The translations under genes and the position numbers were made by a program. Under the pieces are notes generated by a model, which saw only the letters and a list, made by a program, of their open reading frames with translations, had not been told where the DNA came from and ran no database searches. DNA of 64,000 bases from positions 1 to 64,000 of IMG/VR virus record IMGVR_UViG_3300037400_003271. One strand, written 5' to 3'. The DNA is from a virus (lineage: Duplodnaviria; Caudoviricetes). This document shows, one piece after another, positions 3,743 through 63,052 of this stretch. The stretch's first letter is position 1. Every line of letters begins with the position of its first letter.

Positions 3743-4453
3743 ATGTTTAAAGAAAAAATCGTAGAGGGGCTCAGGGCGAAATCTGAAATCAAGCGTTTCG
3801 GGCTGAGCAACGAGGCTATTGACCGGATTGCCACCGAGAGGGAAAAGACGGTTACCGAAGAGTCTCAGGTCGAAACCGTCCTTACGGATGCGGAAACCAT
3901 GAGGCTGATCGCCGAAGAGCTGATGAAGCATCGTGACCAGGAAATCACCAAGAGGACCGAAGCGCAGAGTGCTTTCAACGACTACAAGGCGAAGCATCCA
4001 GAGAAAACGGACGATCCCAACGACAAGCACGACGTTGACGACCCGGACAGTAAGAGCCTCATCGAGAAGATTCAGGCAGCCGTAACCGCAGCCGTCACGC
4101 CGCTGAACGACAAGATCGCCGCTCTGGAAAACCTTAATTCAACCAAGGCCGCGCTTGACGGCGCTCGTGAGAAGTTCTTTGGAGGCGACTATGCCAAGAA
4201 GTACAAGGACGAAGCTGACGACGCGTGGGATCGGGCGGTTGAGATGAATGAGGCCACCGGGAACAAGATGACCGCGGACGAACTGGCCGAAAAGGCCACC
4301 GGCTACTTCAACAAGGCCGTTTCCAGAAAGGGTGTTGACACCTCGCTGCCGTTCAAGGCCGACAAGACCGGGGACGAAGACGAGGGCACGCTCGACTGGA
4401 GCGACGAGAAGAAGCGCCTGCAGGACGAGGGCCGTCTTCCCAAAGATCAGTAA
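3743..4453 (+). CDS. Capsid scaffolding protein
   Basis: Charged helical protein between portal and capsid genes; start re-assigned to ATG 3743. Confidence 0.65.
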   Translation: MFKEKIVEGLRAKSEIKRFGLSNEAIDRIATEREKTVTEESQVETVLTDAETMRLIAEELMKHRDQEITKRTEAQSAFNDYKAKHPEKTDDPNDKHDVDDPDSKSLIEKIQAAVTAAVTPLNDKIAALENLNSTKAALDGAREKFFGGDYAKKYKDEADDAWDRAVEMNEATGNKMTADELAEKATGYFNKAVSRKGVDTSLPFKADKTGDEDEGTLDWSDEKKRLQDEGRLPKDQ

Positions 4454-4477
4454 GTTTAACCCAAAAACCATTCAGAA

Positions 4478-5119
4478 ATGAGCAACTACGGTAACGCTTT
4501 TTTCTCGACCGAGTCCAAGCAGTATCCTGCCGGCTCCATGCCGATTTGGCTCGAGGTCAACAAGCGCAAGATCGCGGGTGGCACTTTCAGCCTCAGCGGC
4601 GTCGCGAAGGGTACGATCTACCCTATCGGCCTGCCCGTGCGTCTTGACAAGATGGGTGGCACCGTCACCCTTCTTCCTACCTTCACCGTGGTGGGCGCTG
4701 TTACTTCTGAGGGCACCACGCTCGTGCTGAAGCCTCAGACCAACATCATCCCGGCTTCCGGTATGATCGTCGGTAAGATGACTTCTGCTGGCGTGTGCGC
4801 GAAGGCTGTCGCTCTCGGCGACGCCACCCCGCTGACCGGCGCGGACGCCGGCAAGTATCAGTTCACCATCACCGCGAACTCTCTCGGCGCCCTGGCTGAC
4901 GGCGACCTTCTCGTGATCGCCACCGTCGCCGGTTCCAACAAGGCCGCCGTTCTCCCGAACGGCCTGTCTTACCGCCAGGTGGTCGTCGACTCCGACAACG
5001 CCACGCTGGGCACCATCGCCGTCGTGACCGAGGGCCAGATCCTTGCCGATCGCATCCCCGCGATGCCGGACTTCTACAAGGACGCCCTGTCGAACATCGA
5101 CTTCCAGTACGAACTTTAA
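4478..5119 (+). CDS. Head decoration/cement protein
   Basis: 213 aa, beta-rich and G/A/T/V-rich, strong codon bias, directly upstream of the capsid gene. Confidence 0.6.
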   Translation: MSNYGNAFFSTESKQYPAGSMPIWLEVNKRKIAGGTFSLSGVAKGTIYPIGLPVRLDKMGGTVTLLPTFTVVGAVTSEGTTLVLKPQTNIIPASGMIVGKMTSAGVCAKAVALGDATPLTGADAGKYQFTITANSLGALADGDLLVIATVAGSNKAAVLPNGLSYRQVVVDSDNATLGTIAVVTEGQILADRIPAMPDFYKDALSNIDFQYEL

Positions 5120-55477: not shown

Positions 55478-55972
55478 TTACTTGTTCAGTTCCTGCTTGG
55501 CGATGATAGCAAGGCGGAAATAACGCCCGACCTTCGCAGGGGTCCACCGCTCGACCTCTTCCCAAGTTTTCTCGGTCGCGTCCTTGTCCTTCTTCCGCAG
55601 TTCGCGCACGAGGCCCTCGCTCACATAGTCCGTCCCAGTCAGGTTCTCGCGGATGAAGTCGGCCGTCAGACACCCGAAAGCAAGGCCGTAGTTGTCGTGC
55701 AGGTTCGCGATGACATCCTTGACCTCGTCCGTCAGCACCATAGCCTTGACCCTCGCGCAGACCTGCTCGAGCGCGTACCGCTGGTTCTTCAGCGCTTGAT
55801 TCTTCGGATCCTCGTGCAGTTCGTCCACGATGCGCTTTAACTCGGCGAGCATCTCGGACTTGTACACCTTGCCCCAATAGGCGCGGAACTCGTTCACATT
55901 GGTTTCGAACTTTCTGCGGTTCTCGTTAATGTCCTTAGCGATAACACCGATTTTCATACTCTTGTTAGCCAT
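55478..55972 (-). CDS. First leftward early protein, helical
   Basis: 164 aa, strong codon bias, preceded by leader copy 3. Confidence 0.65.
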   Translation of the reverse strand: MANKSMKIGVIAKDINENRRKFETNVNEFRAYWGKVYKSEMLAELKRIVDELHEDPKNQALKNQRYALEQVCARVKAMVLTDEVKDVIANLHDNYGLAFGCLTADFIRENLTGTDYVSEGLVRELRKKDKDATEKTWEEVERWTPAKVGRYFRLAIIAKQELNK

Positions 55973-56016
55973 AATTCGATTTATTCAGTATTAAACCCCT
56001 GTCTCCGGTCTAAAAG
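55973..56016 (-). repeat. Conserved leader, copy 3
   Basis: CTTTTAGACCGGAGACAGGGGTTTAATACTGAATAAATCGAATT then ATG. Confidence 0.75.
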
Positions 56017-56034
56017 TTAATATAAAATGATTCG

Positions 56035-56141
56035 CGGACGCATAAGGGAGTCGAACCCCTACTCGCCCATAGCCGTTCGCGTTTCTCCTTTCTGCGAATA
56101 ATCCCATATTCGCGCTTTACTACTTGAAACGCCATCTGCCC
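56035..56141 (-). ncRNA. Structured element with a tRNA-type T-arm
   Basis: - strand AGGGG-TTCGACT-CCCTT; 7-bp hairpin GCGAATA/TATTCGC; acceptor pairing poor. Confidence 0.3.
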
Positions 56142-56804
56142 TATTCCATCGGCCTATTTTTTGCCTACAATACTATGTATATATCGCACCGCTACTCGTT
56201 TAGCATTGTACGAATTCAGTCTAAATTCGATTCGTACATAGTTAGCCCGCATATCGCGTCGGGACGCCTTTTTTAGTCCTATTTATTTATCCGGCGTTCA
56301 TCGTTCAATTTTATAATCGGTTTCCCTATATTCGTCTATCCCGCCTATAGTCCGGCCTTTTTATTTAGACTGCCGTTTCAGTGTTTTTAGTTCCGCTCGG
56401 CTTGCAAAACTCACCTACATAGTAGGCCGTAGTCGGCTACAGGGTAAATCGTCGCTCATTCGTGGGTCATCCGTGGATGTAAGATTGGTAAGCATACAAT
56501 GCCCCCCTATGAGGATTTCATTCCCTTTTACCTTCTCGCATTCAAACTTATAAAGAACTTTCAAATCGCTTACGCCTATATATATAACAATTGCCGTGCC
56601 AAAATACGGCACGCGTGCCAAAAATTAGCAAAAAAATTTAGGCCGTGCGTATCTTATTGATTTCCAGCGGGTTACGGGCGTCAATTTAGAGAAATTCTAA
56701 ATAGGAGGGCGCGGAGCGCCACTGTACTAGTATACTAAGACACCCCCTGGGTTTCATAAGCAAAAATTATGGGTTTCATACCTTTGCCGACCGCCAAAGG
56801 TTTG

Positions 56805-56829
56805 TAACTGCTTGATTATCAATAAGTTA
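56805..56829. promoter_or_regulatory. Back-to-back IHF-consensus palindrome
   Basis: TAACTGCTTGATTATCAATAAGTTA matches WATCAANNNNTTR on both strands; related copies at 56650-56674, 57002-57026, 57076-57088. Confidence 0.6.
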
Positions 56830-56980
56830 GGCCGGCGAAGGGGTACGGGGGTTTATTGTGGCGGCTTATCGAAGGCCCCGCCTGCGACTCTGAAATTTTT
56901 TTTTCTTATAATCCGGGTTGCCTGGATTTCGACCAGCCCGGAGATCCTGAACTCGAGGGGGTTGACACAAATTGTCAAAA

Positions 56981-57268
56981 TGTGGCTAAGTTGAGCGCTT
57001 GTAAGTCACTGGAATAGAGCAAGTTGATGAAATGTGGTTAACTTTTTACCACGAAAATTATATTCTGCTCTGCTGTAAGTAGTTGATTATGAGGGCGGTG
57101 GTTAAGTGGAAGAATATAACTTAAATAAATAAGTGGAAGAATTTTATGCAATATATAGCGTTCTACGAGAGGTCTTTAAAAATGGCTTCTCAATTTCAAG
57201 CAAATCTGCATTCTACGGCATTCCATTCGATAAAGTATATGTACAACTTAACCACAGACTTAACCACA
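56981..57268. repeat. Cluster of DnaA-box-like ACTTAACCACA repeats
   Basis: Exact copies 57246-57256 and 57258-57268; inverted 1-mismatch copies 56981-56991, 57033-57043, 57097-57107. Confidence 0.65.
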
Positions 57269-57299
57269 AATTGGCGCAAATCTGCATTCTACGGCATTC
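57200..57299 (+). repeat. Perfect 24-bp direct repeat pair
   Basis: GCAAATCTGCATTCTACGGCATTC at 57200-57223 and 57276-57299. Confidence 0.85.
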
Positions 57300-57382
57300 T
57301 GACAAAGATTTCCGTACAACCATGTTGTAAACCAAATCAGCCTCCTACGACCCTACGATTTAAAAAAATGTGAACAAATGGG

Positions 57383-59355: not shown

Positions 59356-59522
59356 TAGCATCGGGTTTCCGGCGTTAAGGCGGGGGTGCCCGGCCGCGCA
59401 CACCGTCAAGGGTAGGTCCGGAATATGGCAGGCGCCAGCCCGAGGATAGTTTGTGTGGCGTCGGCCGGATCAAAGCGGGCCGGAATAAAGGACATACCGC
59501 AATTCCGGGCAGCGGCAGACAG

Positions 59523-59604
59523 AGTGTGGTAGCTCAGTGGACAGAGCGCCGCCCCAAGCGCATGGGGATCAACGGAGACGCGGGTTCGAATCCCGTCCAC
59601 GCAC
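59523..59604 (+). tRNA. tRNA-like element 1 with enlarged non-canonical anticodon arm
   Basis: 6-bp acceptor GTGTGG/CCACGC, D arm GCTC-AGTGGACA-GAGC, T arm GCGGG-TTCGAAT-CCCGT; 27-nt anticodon region. Confidence 0.7.
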
Positions 59605-59622
59605 AGAGAGATCTTTGAAATT

Positions 59623-59976
59623 GGGGCTGGTTTGGTTTAGACTTGCATGAGGCAGGTACTGACTTACGCACTGGGCGGTGATCCCAGTTGAATAAAGCAC
59701 CGAAAACACAAAAGGCAAGAATTTCATCAGCAGGATGGCGGGCAAGGCTCGTGCTCTGCGCGAAAAGGTCGCCGGGATCTTCGCTCCCCGCGAGATTGAA
59801 GAGTTCGCTCTGGCGATTGCCTAATTTCTCGGCTTAGGAAAACCGAGTGGTGGAGATGGGCAGTGAACTTCTGTCCTGACCGTCCTGGAGCCGGACAAAA
59901 ATGGCTATCCTAAGCGTATGAACAAAGTCAGTATGGGCACATGTATAGGACGAGGGTTCGACTCCCTCCAGCTCCA
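59623..59976 (+). ncRNA. ssrA: tmRNA, complete, with a 36-codon tag frame (59714-59824)
   Basis: GGGGCTG/CAGCTCC acceptor with G3:U70 and A discriminator, T arm GAGGG-TTCGACT-CCCTC, helix TACTGACTT/AAGTCAGTA, PK1 CTGGG/CCCAG + CGGTG/CACCG, 11-nt spacer to GGC resume codon. Confidence 0.92.
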
Positions 59977-60001
59977 CAAAGGCAGTGAGGTATGCCCTAT
60001 A

Positions 60002-60159
60002 GGGAACAACATTGGACTTGCCGTACAATAGTGCTTAGGAATCAAGTGCTATGCCCAATGCCCGAAGAACCTGGTAGCGCAGGTCGCTGCAAACATATCG
60101 TCCCGCCGTGAGGCGCGAGCGCAGGCGCGAGTACATAGTGTCTTAGTGTATTAGTTCCC
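60002..60159 (+). ncRNA. Unidentified multi-stem structured RNA
   Basis: GGGAAC/GTTCCC closing stem, CATTGG/CCAATG, ATAGTGCTT/AAGTGCTAT, ACCTG/CAGGT, CGCC-GTGA-GGCG. Confidence 0.5.
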
Positions 60160-60181
60160 CGGGCCGCCTGACCGGGATTCT

Positions 60182-60253
60182 GGGAGGGTAGCTCAGAGGT
60201 AGAGCGGGCGCCGAGGGGCGCGAAGGCCGGCGGTCCGAATCCGCCCCCTTCCA
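60182..60253 (+). tRNA. tRNA-like element 2: Ala-type acceptor, no canonical anticodon loop
   Basis: GGGAGGG/CCCTTCC-A with G3:U70; D arm GCTC/GAGC; T arm GGCGG-TCCGAAT-CCGCC; anticodon arm pairs only as GCGCC-GAGG-GGCGC. Confidence 0.7.
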
Positions 60254-60351
60254 CACAGGAAGCGCAGTGATGCGCGGTGTAAACGGAGGATTTGCCATAT
60301 AGTGAACTGGATAGTTATTGCTGATGGCCGTGTTCTTCCGTGCGGCCACAT

Positions 60352-60426
60352 AGCGGGGTGGTGAACCGGTAACACGCGAAGCCCCATGTACGCATCGAGA
60401 AGCAAGTTCGATTCTTGCCCCCGCAA
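60352..60426 (+). tRNA. tRNA-like element 3 with extended anticodon arm (CAT in a 9-nt loop)
   Basis: GCGGGG/CCCCGC acceptor, T arm GCAAG-TTCGATT-CTTGC, D stem GTG/CAC; 21-nt anticodon arm. Confidence 0.65.
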
Positions 60427-60544
60427 CTCTATGAAACGGACAGCAGCATACGGCGTCAGCAGGACGCGGGATGCCAGGGGCGTGTCTTCTGGAGATATAT
60501 CCCGAAGAAACCGGGCAGGATTTGTAAGTTTGGAATAGTTTTTG

Positions 60545-60671: not shown

Positions 60672-62135
60672 TTGAGCAAGAAGAATGATGTCATAGACTA
60701 CCTCATTTCGGTCCTGGAGCCGGAGATTTCCGGCAAGGGGGCGACTGACGGCAAATTGGACAAGCTCAAGGAGGCAGAGCTCTGCGACGCCTTCGAGAGT
60801 TATGTCTGTGGCAGGCCGGACGATACGGGGTGCGACTTTTTCAAGGTCGCGGAGGGTGATGTCTTGTTCATGTTCAACGGGAAGTGGTACGAGAAGATTG
60901 ACGATGTGCGCCTGCGCTTCATCGTGAAGGAGGTGCTTAGGAAATGCCACGTGGGTTCGATCTATATCCGTAACTCTGCGTCGAAGATCGCCGACGAGTG
61001 CAAGGAGACGCTCCTTTCATGCGAATGGTGTTTCTTCGAGCCGGACCGCAGGTATGTGGTGTTCCGGAACGGTGTTCTGGATATGGAGACGAGGCGCTTT
61101 TATGAACACGACATCAAGTACAAGACGGACATAGTCCTGAATTTCAACTACCTATCGAACGAGAGGAGCGGCCTGTGGGACCGTCTCATCTCGCAGACGG
61201 TTCCGGACGAGGGTATGCGCGGCGCGATGCAGCAGTTCTGCGGCGCCATGCTCGCGGACCGGAAGAAGTTCAAGATCGAGTACATGCTGATGCTGGTCGG
61301 TAGCGGCCGGAATGGCAAGTCGGTGGTTACCGACGCCATCGCGAACGTGTTCGGAGACGATCTGGTGAGTTCGTACAGCCCGGAGCAGCTCTTCGGGAAC
61401 ACGGGCCATAGCCTGTACAACCTCGCGGACATCAACGGAAAGTTGGCGAACATCTGCGACGATCTGAAGAACAAGGAATTCTCCGGAGGCGAGTTCAAGC
61501 AATTCATCTCCGGGCACAAGTTCCAGGCGCGGCACATCTACGGCCGCCCGTTCGTGGTCAGCAAGATCCCTCTGATGGTGTGCTGCATGAACGAGATTCC
61601 TCCGACCACGGACGATACTATGGGCCACTACCGCCGGCTCCTGCCGATCCTCTGCCCGAACCAGGTGGCGGAGAAGGACGTGGACTACGAGCTGTCGGAC
61701 AAGTTGGCGACGGATGACAACAAGGCGGCCATCTTCAACTGGCTCCTCGACGGCTACAAGGCGTTCGTGGAGAACAAGGGCCGCATCGAAATCAGCGACA
61801 GCATCAAGAATATCCGCGAGGACATCAAGGCCGACGCGAACTCCGCCCGGCAGTGGATCCGAGAGATGGGATACACTCCCGTCGCCGTGCGCGATCCGAA
61901 CGACCCTCGCTGGAAGCCTATCAACGAGTGGATGCGCGAGTACATCGATTGGTGCCGCGAGTGCTCCGAGAACGCGAAGACGGCCAAGGCAGTCGGCTCC
62001 GTGCTGAAGGACCTCGGGTTTGCCAGCGAGAAGCGCAGGAGCACCACTTGGTATTGCATCGGGAGGAAGGCCGAAGAGAATGTTGTGTCTACCGACCTCC
62101 CCGGCGAGGATGGTAAGGACGATCTTCCGTTCTGA
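60672..62135 (+). CDS. D5-like/P4-family primase-helicase (SF3 ATPase)
   Basis: D5-N-like region (VVFRNGVLDME), Walker A GSGRNGKS, Walker B ICDD, motif C CMNEIP; C-terminal DDLPF. Confidence 0.88.
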   Translation: MSKKNDVIDYLISVLEPEISGKGATDGKLDKLKEAELCDAFESYVCGRPDDTGCDFFKVAEGDVLFMFNGKWYEKIDDVRLRFIVKEVLRKCHVGSIYIRNSASKIADECKETLLSCEWCFFEPDRRYVVFRNGVLDMETRRFYEHDIKYKTDIVLNFNYLSNERSGLWDRLISQTVPDEGMRGAMQQFCGAMLADRKKFKIEYMLMLVGSGRNGKSVVTDAIANVFGDDLVSSYSPEQLFGNTGHSLYNLADINGKLANICDDLKNKEFSGGEFKQFISGHKFQARHIYGRPFVVSKIPLMVCCMNEIPPTTDDTMGHYRRLLPILCPNQVAEKDVDYELSDKLATDDNKAAIFNWLLDGYKAFVENKGRIEISDSIKNIREDIKADANSARQWIREMGYTPVAVRDPNDPRWKPINEWMREYIDWCRECSENAKTAKAVGSVLKDLGFASEKRRSTTWYCIGRKAEENVVSTDLPGEDGKDDLPF

Positions 62136-62137
62136 TT

Positions 62138-63052
62138 ATGGCAGGATATAGAGTAGCAAGGGCTTTCGAGCGGATCCCGGAGATCACCGGGCTGGAACTT
62201 GTGCGCAACGGCGCCAAGTGGCAGGGCGGCTATTATCTGAACGGCGACAGGCATCAGTTCCGCCGCGACAAGCTGAAAGTGGTGGAGTGGAAGAACGGCA
62301 TCTGGCTGTTCGAGGAGGGGGGCGACAGCATGAGCCTCGAGAACTGGCTGCAGCAGTATGGCGGCGCCAAGGACTATTGGGACGCAGTGGCGATCATAGA
62401 GGGGAGGTCTGAAGGGTTTCGGTATGACCGCGATGTGAGGAAGAAGGAGACGCGGCAGCAGTATGTCGATCCGAGCGCGCTCGCCGGGGCGAAGCAGTAT
62501 GATCTGAGGAAGTGCAACCTCTTCAACTGGATGTGCACGATGTTCCCGGAGAAGAGAGTACGCGAGGTGTGGGATATGTACAACGTGACGACAGATTCGC
62601 ACGGTAATTGCGTCTTCTGGTACGTTGACCAGGACGGAAAGATATTGTATGACAAGAGAATCCTATATAAGGCCGATGGCCACAGAGATCGAGGTTTCTT
62701 CCCCGGACGGCAATACAGAGTCGCTGACGGATACGTTGGAAAGTGCTATTTCGGTGCGCATCTTAAGGACGACGGGAAAAAAGCCTTTATTATGGAGAGC
62801 GAAAAGTCAGTGCTGCTCTCGTCGCTCTATTTCGGAAATAGAAGATTTATGGCTTGCGGTGGGAAGTCGAATCTCCGCGAAATAGAGCCGAACACACTGC
62901 TTGTCCCCGATATGGATGCCCGCATTGAATGGGATGAGAAGGGCGAGGTATGGCCGTGGTGGGAGAAGTGGGGGAAGCCCGTGAGCGAGATCCCGGAGAA
63001 GGCCGACATCGGCGATATGATCGAAAGCAGGTTATTGCGTAATTTAGAATAA
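62138..63052 (+). CDS. Replication protein, DUF6371-like / Toprim-related primase partner
   Basis: VFWYVDQDG, CYFGAHL, IMESEKS, ACGG, PDMD, ADIGD. Confidence 0.65.
   Translation: MAGYRVARAFERIPEITGLELVRNGAKWQGGYYLNGDRHQFRRDKLKVVEWKNGIWLFEEGGDSMSLENWLQQYGGAKDYWDAVAIIEGRSEGFRYDRDVRKKETRQQYVDPSALAGAKQYDLRKCNLFNWMCTMFPEKRVREVWDMYNVTTDSHGNCVFWYVDQDGKILYDKRILYKADGHRDRGFFPGRQYRVADGYVGKCYFGAHLKDDGKKAFIMESEKSVLLSSLYFGNRRFMACGGKSNLREIEPNTLLVPDMDARIEWDEKGEVWPWWEKWGKPVSEIPEKADIGDMIESRLLRNLE

Follow-up and report, generated by a model that had tools for sequence, protein, structure and literature searches.

The tmRNA locus and the phage that carries it

The stretch of DNA analysed, referred to here as the window, comprises 64,000 nt and corresponds to the first 64 kb of a 72,852 bp virus genome (IMG/VR record IMGVR_UViG_3300037400_003271), which has direct terminal repeats and is rated complete. 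Genes for a terminase, a portal protein and a major head protein are present in the window; the nearest terminase from cultured isolates, with 38.6% identity, is that of Parabacteroides phages. The tmRNA gene (Table 1) lies among genes for an HNH endonuclease, a MazG-type pyrophosphatase and a D5-type primase-helicase, with a helicase gene farther along. It forms part of an island of RNA genes, approximately 1 kb in length (window 59515-60522), which comprises tRNA look-alikes, the tmRNA and other elements. The strand that carries this island also encodes an RtcB RNA ligase, at genome positions 68792-69985 (L045 8792-9985; Pfam E = 6e-62). No gene for SmpB, ClpP or a tyrosine integrase was found in the phage genome.

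The order of HNH endonuclease or MazG gene, tmRNA and D5-type primase gene is kept in four related contigs (L038, L040, L003 and L043), among which the identity of the primase to that of the window falls as low as 44%. This implies that the tmRNA has long been retained in the lineage. In two other contigs (L039 and L041) the flanks have none of the tested proteins in common with the window, indicating that the tmRNA family is also present in other phages. A close relative whose primase is 82% identical, L004, lacks the RNA island altogether: approximately 110 nt (L004 5739-5850) stand in its place, and both flanks can be aligned. Hence the island is accessory, and the tmRNA dispensable.

The tmRNA is flanked by two tRNA-shaped genes. 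Both score above the Rfam tRNA cut-off, and in the ARAGORN output each has a 6-nt loop with a two-base 'anticodon'. Six of the seven copies of the family studied below have a tRNA or tRNA-like gene whose end is roughly 15-25 nt from the start of the tmRNA, on its upstream side, an arrangement that fits co-transcription followed by processing by tRNA-maturing enzymes. A Bacteroidota -7 promoter box (TAnnTTTG) was considered within the conserved sequence TCTTTGAAATT just upstream of the gene; the match is imperfect, and given the tRNA-like gene that ends only 17 nt before the tmRNA, processing from a common transcript seems an equally likely origin.

Table 1. Positions in the window of the tmRNA gene, its parts and the two flanking tRNA-shaped genes
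Feature	Position	Strand	Basis or remark
tRNA-shaped gene, aberrant anticodon arm	59522..59605	+	Rfam tRNA 41.1 bits; ends 17 nt before tmRNA
tmRNA gene, G1 to discriminator A73	59623..59976	+	Rfam RF00023; CCA not encoded (CAA follows)
Acceptor stem 5' strand GGGGCUG, with G3 of the G3:U70 alanine identity pair	59623..59629	+	Pairs with 59969-59975
Long helix 2, 5' strand, replacing the anticodon arm	59642..59669	+	Partner 59915-59948
Pseudoknot 1: ACUGGG/CCCAGU and CGGUG/CACCG	59670..59702	+	All cells paired, 7 copies
A-rich spacer of 11 nt, A at -4 from the resume codon	59703..59713	+	Sequence reading
Predicted tag frame: GGC resume codon, 36 sense codons, TAA at 59822-59824	59714..59824	+	Frame kept in 7 copies
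Tag-template hairpin: outer helix 59714-59729 with 59797-59809; inner hairpin 59730-59759	59714..59809	+	RNAalifold, pair counts
Post-stop hairpin CUCGG...CCGAG	59828..59847	+	Compensatory changes in L039, L041
Reduced pseudoknot domain: helix GGGCAG/CUGUCC, then compact pseudoknot GUCC/GGAC and AGCC/GGCU	59858..59906	+	Pair counts
T arm 59952-59968 and acceptor 3' strand 59969-59975	59952..59975	+	3/5 T-stem pairs changed on both sides
Second tRNA-shaped gene, aberrant anticodon arm	60182-60254		Rfam tRNA 43.6 bits; has G3:U70 and A73

Detection of the tmRNA gene

The original prediction, made from the sequence alone, had described a complete phage tmRNA at this position. A search with the Rfam tmRNA model RF00023 confirms that this is a full-length gene within a complete phage genome: the match extends over 59623-59979 (+) and the whole of the model (positions 1-374), with a score of 67.9 bits (E = 2.6e-24) against a gathering score of 47. 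The coordinates and peptide originally proposed, including a frame of 36 codons from the GGC at 59714, agree with the reading of the sequence made here, and the mature 3' end is probably the discriminator A at 59976. The hallmarks of a tmRNA are present, namely a 7-bp acceptor stem with G3:U70, a discriminator A, a T arm with a GUUCGA-type loop, helix 2 and pseudoknot 1.

With its default settings ARAGORN does not call the gene in the window. Lowering its thresholds produces nothing but spurious tmRNA calls at other places in the genome, the gene at 59623-59976 never being among them. Some test copies from which internal tag codons had been removed are called, each time with resumption at GGC, and the L043 copy is called by default with a 29-residue tag starting at the same GGC. 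As the default mode of ARAGORN is the basis of tmRNA calling in the phage annotation pipelines described in the literature consulted, surveys probably under-count phage tmRNAs with long tags.

Relatives of the gene and covariation within its fold

Pattern scans found the same gene in two IMG/VR contigs and seven metagenome stretches, some of which are duplicates of one another. Seven distinct full-length copies, including that of the window, were aligned (alignment A2); one further copy is partial. The six relatives score between 54.8 and 73.5 bits with RF00023. Other routes to the family were less productive. The sole match in a BLAST search of the region against GenBank phages was a 32-nt stretch of the T arm of the crAss-like phage cr10_1, while a 16-nt pattern taken from the conserved region after the tag occurs at 33 viral loci, among which the true matches are three already-known contigs only. 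A back-translated search with the tag alignment returned only a known contig, and the 36-residue peptide had no match in Pfam or the protein atlas.

Covariation was studied using a hand-written structure of 90 pairs that takes in the two stems of pseudoknot 1 as well as a last pseudoknot. Standard pairs make up 95.3% of the pair cells, and 25 pairs are changed on both sides among the seven copies, although such counts from seven related sequences are not equivalent to probabilities. None of 500 shuffles reaches the observed pairing and number of doubly changed pairs, and sliding the partners by one to three columns, a control that leaves the relatedness of the copies intact, reduces pairing to 31-44%. 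The latter result is decisive: support for the RNA fold is far beyond chance.

The third acceptor pair is G:U in all seven copies. A fixed-column count gives 85.7% pairing for the acceptor helix, a value that reflects the rows of L038 and L043 being one column out of register; when alignment A2 is read by hand, all seven pairs are kept in these two copies through changes on both strands. Helix 2 consists of 24 pairs, with 99-100% of cells paired and five pairs changed on both sides, and four of the six pairs in the first stem of pseudoknot 1 are likewise changed on both sides. Between the tag frame and helix 2, where PK2-PK4 are expected in a tmRNA, there is pair support for one hairpin, one helix and one compact pseudoknot; PK2-PK4 have been reported to be dispensable (PMC11431127). 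The post-stop hairpin is shifted in L040 and L042, which have an insertion there, and in these two copies a plain hairpin takes the place of the compact pseudoknot. A candidate long-range pairing between the loop of the post-stop hairpin (CUUAGGA) and a segment before helix 2 (UCCUAAG) was dropped, as most relatives retain only four nucleotides of it, and L040 and L042 retain none.

Comparative evidence for translation of the tag frame

The predicted tag peptide of the window is GKNFISRMAGKARALREKVAGIFAPREIEEFALAIA, of 36 residues. Across the seven copies the tag lengths are 36, 36, 36, 36, 36, 34 and 29 residues, the shortest being that of L043, which lacks seven codons. The two indels responsible, of 6 and 21 nt, are both in frame, and the other two frames contain stop codons in several copies. 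The distance of 11 nt from pseudoknot 1 to the GGC codon is the one typical of tmRNAs (PMC11431127). In the window and L041 there is an A at position -4, as in host tmRNAs, which likewise resume at GGC.

The distribution of changes within the frame also follows that of a coding sequence, with the caveat that seven mutually related copies represent few independent events. The numbers of variable columns at codon positions 1, 2 and 3 are 15, 10 and 23 respectively, of 36 each (hypergeometric P = 0.004). For the insert described below, taken alone, the corresponding figures are 13, 10 and 17, which is marginal (P = 0.06). Of the differing codon pairs in the tag frame 34% are synonymous, compared with 18% and 13% when either of the other frames is read, and dN/dS between pairs of copies with different tags ranges from 0.15 to 0.87; L040 and L042 differ by only two synonymous changes. 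Replacements are mostly conservative (I/F/L, V/M/I, K/R), and twelve residues are invariant: G1, K2, N3, K11, L15, R16, A20, F31, A32, L33, A34 and A36. From these patterns we infer that the frame is translated from the GGC at 59714, such that both the resume codon and the 36-codon length originally proposed are borne out by the comparison of the seven copies.

Comparison with the tmRNAs of Bacteroidota

At least 120 genomes, all of them Bacteroidota, contain an exact match to 29 nt from the 3' end of the tRNA-like domain, and the 5' part of the domain, GGUUU(U/A)GAC in the D-loop region, is also of host type. The profile of the phage family matches host genes over their last ~100 nt only, and the best matches are mostly from assemblies of Prevotella or Prevotellaceae from ruminants. 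The host is therefore probably a Prevotella-type rumen bacterium. Among 401 genomes sampled from the host family, none was found to contain the phage tag template.

The one-piece tmRNAs of Prevotella and other Bacteroidales (L046-L165, L283-L287) share much with the phage copies. Both have G3:U70, A73, the 29-nt stretch, GGUUU(U/A)GAC, helix 2, pseudoknot 1 and a GGC with A at -4, which in the host genes is preceded by UAAUU or UAACU, and neither encodes CCA (not encoded in 113 of 120 Bacteroidota tmRNA genes). Both tags start with G-(K/E/N)-N and have (Y/F)-A-L-A near their end. The phage family differs in being carried by phages, in its reduced pseudoknot domain and in its lower Rfam score (55-74 bits, as opposed to 131-146 for host genes). 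It also differs in having a tag of 29-36 residues rather than 8-10, an end of A-(I/V)-A rather than AA, and a template that forms a covarying hairpin. Its genes measure 336-373 nt, compared with 362-410 nt (median 397) in the host, even though the phage tag template is longer. This comparison demonstrates that both ends of the tRNA-like domain are of host type, and that the predicted tag frame has grown from the nine codons of the host to 29-36.

ARAGORN yields a tag at 99 of the host loci. Its 101 calls comprise 95 tags of nine residues, four of 8 or 10 residues and two spurious long ones; the host loci without a call are either cut short or have ordinary tags. The approximately 107 Bacteroidota tags determined in all are of 8-10 residues, start with G (with E in one case) and end in AA without exception. 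The generalisation that Bacteroidota tags begin with Gly and end in YALAA therefore stands, with FALAA as an alternative ending, and long tags are not common in the host clade; had they been, this would have spoken against the original interpretation. One Prevotella assembly (G003, contig C87) was observed to carry two full-length tmRNA genes in tandem, at 61683-62083 and 62287-62686 (L284 and L287), which lie ~200 nt apart and score 138.5 and 131.4 bits.

The C-terminus of the phage tag

All seven phage tags end in A-(I/V)-A, an ending found in none of the host tags, with FALAIA as the usual form and FALAVA in L043. The changed C-terminus that had been noted in the window is thus common to every copy. 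The FALA portion is of host type, and it is the final Ala-Ala that is replaced by (I/V)-A. In the ssrA tag of Escherichia coli the terminal Ala-Ala-COO- is the main determinant of recognition by ClpXP, and substitution of the penultimate Ala increases the KM of ClpXP while leaving Vmax little altered (PMC7652416). By analogy with E. coli, rather than from Bacteroidota themselves, the phage tag should bind ClpX less well.

The insert as RNA hairpin and as peptide

When set against host tags such as GNEEFALAA and GNNNFALAA, the phage tag has the layout GKN, an insert of 19-26 residues, (E/N)FALA, an added Ile or Val, and A. It reads as a host-type tag split by an insert. At the RNA level the template forms a hairpin of 24 pairs, 95% paired and with eight pairs changed on both sides, in whose outer helix the first codons of the tag pair with codons around EFA. 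Some of the compensatory changes are synonymous on both sides (AAG/UUC to AAA/UUU), while others couple two residues, G10 occurring with A12, and D10 or N10 with V12. The presence of both kinds of compensation implies that selection has acted on RNA and peptide alike, and part of the apparent conservation of the insert peptide may reflect selection on the RNA.

A probably amphipathic, basic helix had been proposed for the tag. Its helical component is in line with an AlphaFold model based on a six-sequence alignment, which has one helix spanning residues 2-23 and another spanning 27-35, separated by a break at A-P-R (mean pLDDT 71.5), and hydrophobic positions are kept in the insert. Amphipathicity does not fare as well, as the hydrophobic moment is not clearly above that of shuffled peptides, 4-28% of which have one as high. 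Nor is 'basic' more than weakly supported, the net charge of the tags being +1 to +4.

Known phage tmRNAs and long tags

Complete tmRNAs have previously been described in the mycobacteriophage Bxz1 group and Bacillus phage G (PMC4131195) and in huge phages (PMC7162821), and approximately 2.3% of sequenced phages have a tmRNA, the OM43 phage Melnitz among them (PMC9004378). Like the window, the Bxz1 group, phage G, Melnitz and cr10_1 have a complete phage tmRNA that is usually near tRNA genes; those of cr10_1 and Melnitz are two-piece (permuted), whereas that of the window is one-piece. Tags are known to range from 8 to 35 residues (2024 paper, PMC11431127), and the bacterial tags at the upper end of that range resemble the present ones in having a long template. 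Other phage tmRNAs sampled from IMG/VR have tags of 8-20 residues, and the literature searched contained no description of conserved long tags, or of a conserved long helical insert, in phage tmRNAs. Hence phage tmRNAs, and tags of up to 35 residues, were already known; what is found here is a conserved phage-borne family with long tags.

A changed C-terminus that goes with a different set of proteases is seen in Mycoplasma, where tags end in AFA (PMC3985003). Both the Mycoplasma tags and the long bacterial tags, however, belong to the only tmRNA of the cell and are matched to its own proteases, whereas the phage brings a second type of tmRNA into a cell with a 9-residue tag.

The tmRNA of cr10_1 (L166 1442-1827; MT774382) is identified by ARAGORN as a permuted two-piece molecule with the tag GNNFVTDYTQLAVA, ending in A-V-A. 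Its tag ends in LAVA, as does that of L043. Two families of two-piece tmRNAs in contigs of crAss-like phages, including cr10_1, end in LAVA and RAVA. Two IMG/VR contigs (L187 and L242) carry 80-nt genes that correspond approximately to a tRNA-like domain alone, with an acceptor stem, D-loop region, short connector and T arm. These resemble the tRNA-like-domain-only gene of mycobacteriophage DS6A, the product of which has been suggested to titrate SmpB (PMC4131195).

Likely function and alternative explanations

The explanation that accounts best for these results, and which is considered probable, is that a probably virulent phage of Bacteroidota has at this locus a functional one-piece tmRNA gene, with a long tag that is translated and constitutes a mark distinct from that of the host. 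The RNA would be made within an array of tRNA-type genes and its ends trimmed by the tRNA-processing enzymes of the host, which would also add CCA, and the host AlaRS would charge it with alanine through G3:U70 and A73. As no phage SmpB was found, host SmpB would be needed, and together with EF-Tu would bring the tmRNA to stalled ribosomes. Resumption at GGC 59714 and decoding of 36 codons would then leave unfinished proteins with an Ala plus 36 residues. The phage tmRNA may thereby add ribosome-rescue capacity during infection, at a time when messages and tRNAs are cut, and the rescued products would receive a mark unlike that of the host, one expected to bind ClpX less strongly owing to the replacement of its penultimate Ala by Ile or Val. 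As originally proposed, this could redirect, slow or block the proteolysis of stalled products, and the tmRNA might serve against RNA-cleaving defences; both consequences are hypotheses. The insert appears to be doubly constrained, as an RNA hairpin that would juxtapose the two host-like halves of the template and as a predicted helical peptide with invariant K11, L15, R16 and A20; it may serve as a handle for another factor.

A more far-reaching version of this explanation treats the long tag as a functional peptide module, through which trans-translation is reprogrammed: the conserved helical handle and a C-terminus poorly recognised by host ClpX would give rescued proteins a different fate, be it sparing, sequestration or capture by a host or phage factor, within an accessory RNA-damage island that includes the tRNA look-alikes and RtcB, and long conserved tags would be a general hallmark of phage tmRNAs overlooked by ARAGORN-based annotation. 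As a whole this is possible, though the balance is against it. Somewhat less likely still is that the tmRNA is functional while its insert has been selected only as RNA, for example as a hairpin that shields or compacts the template, leaving the peptide as a passenger, required only to remain open for the C-terminal degron to be made, and the tag as an ordinary degradation mark. The two helices with their eight doubly changed pairs would be expected in such a case, as would the coupling of some residue changes through base pairs, the marginal third-position excess within the insert, the variation in tag length including the loss of seven codons in L043, and the lack of significant amphipathicity. 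An RNA-only role fits less well with a synonymous share in the tag frame that is twice that of the other frames, with mostly conservative replacements and with the four invariant residues of the insert, while the A-(I/V)-A ending, which is separate from the hairpin and kept in all copies, argues against an unchanged degron.

It is improbable that the molecule is instead a decoy, which captures host SmpB, AlaRS or stalled ribosomes and thereby obstructs trans-translation in the host or diverts it, its long structured template slowing or jamming rescue. The titration suggested for DS6A provides a precedent, to which the 80-nt genes of L187 and L242 may be added; furthermore, the GGC resume codon falls inside a helix of the predicted fold, and the Rfam scores are far below those of host genes. 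A decoy would nevertheless have no need of an open, codon-biased frame of 29-36 codons with in-frame indels and a kept stop, nor for pseudoknot 1, the spacer and the A at -4 all to be kept. Very improbable is the addition of a short, host-like tag of ~10 residues, either by resumption far downstream near the EFALAIA codons or by a ribosome hop over the hairpin. The hairpin does set the GKN codons beside those for EFALAIA, and the joined halves would resemble host tags such as GNEEFALAA, but a skipped segment would not be expected to maintain its frame, third-position variation and exclusively in-frame indels, and resumption there would put more than 80 nt, rather than the usual 11 nt, between pseudoknot 1 and the resume codon. 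Hopping was rejected, given the conserved frame of the insert and the lack of matched take-off and landing codons; there is also no stop after the take-off site.

That the gene is simply host DNA, either an ssrA gene of the host bordering a prophage or a copy captured recently and without function in the phage, is barely credible. Admittedly, ssrA is a frequent site of prophage integration, host-type tmRNA genes or 3' fragments of them are found in many IMG/VR contigs, and the tRNA-like domain has host-type ends. The full-length gene nonetheless lies in the interior of a complete genome that has terminal repeats and in which no tyrosine integrase was found; its resemblance to host tmRNAs is limited to the last ~100 nt and does not extend to the tag, its genomic place is kept across diverged phages, and it was not found in the 401 host-family genomes.

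The tags of tmRNAs are usually viewed as short degradation signals tuned to the proteases of the cell itself. In the case of a translated phage tag, a virus would be bringing in a second tmRNA in which the host-compatible tRNA-like parts have been kept and the message rebuilt, with a tag four times as long, a conserved inner segment and a changed final dipeptide. This fourfold difference in length suggests that the phages probably mark unfinished proteins differently from their host. If the tag is read as predicted, control over the marking of unfinished proteins would pass to the phage during infection, which raises the question of whether the fate of the tagged proteins, beyond the release of ribosomes, matters to the virus.

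Other features of the phage contigs

Directly 3' of the tmRNA, at 59980-60025, is a block of ~45 nt (CAGTGAGGTATGCCC...GGAACAACA...CTTGCCG) that is conserved in five contigs (the window, L038, L039, L042 and L003), some of which have otherwise different flanks. It matched no Rfam family, and may represent a further structured RNA or a processing signal. In the closely related contig L038, positions 4441-4517 match the type-P5 twister ribozyme with 43.9 bits (cut-off 37.6). The window also contains a region of ~1.4 kb (55972-57360) without an ORF of at least 80 residues, which has the lowest G+C content of the window (0.487) and is situated between a leftward and a rightward block of genes.
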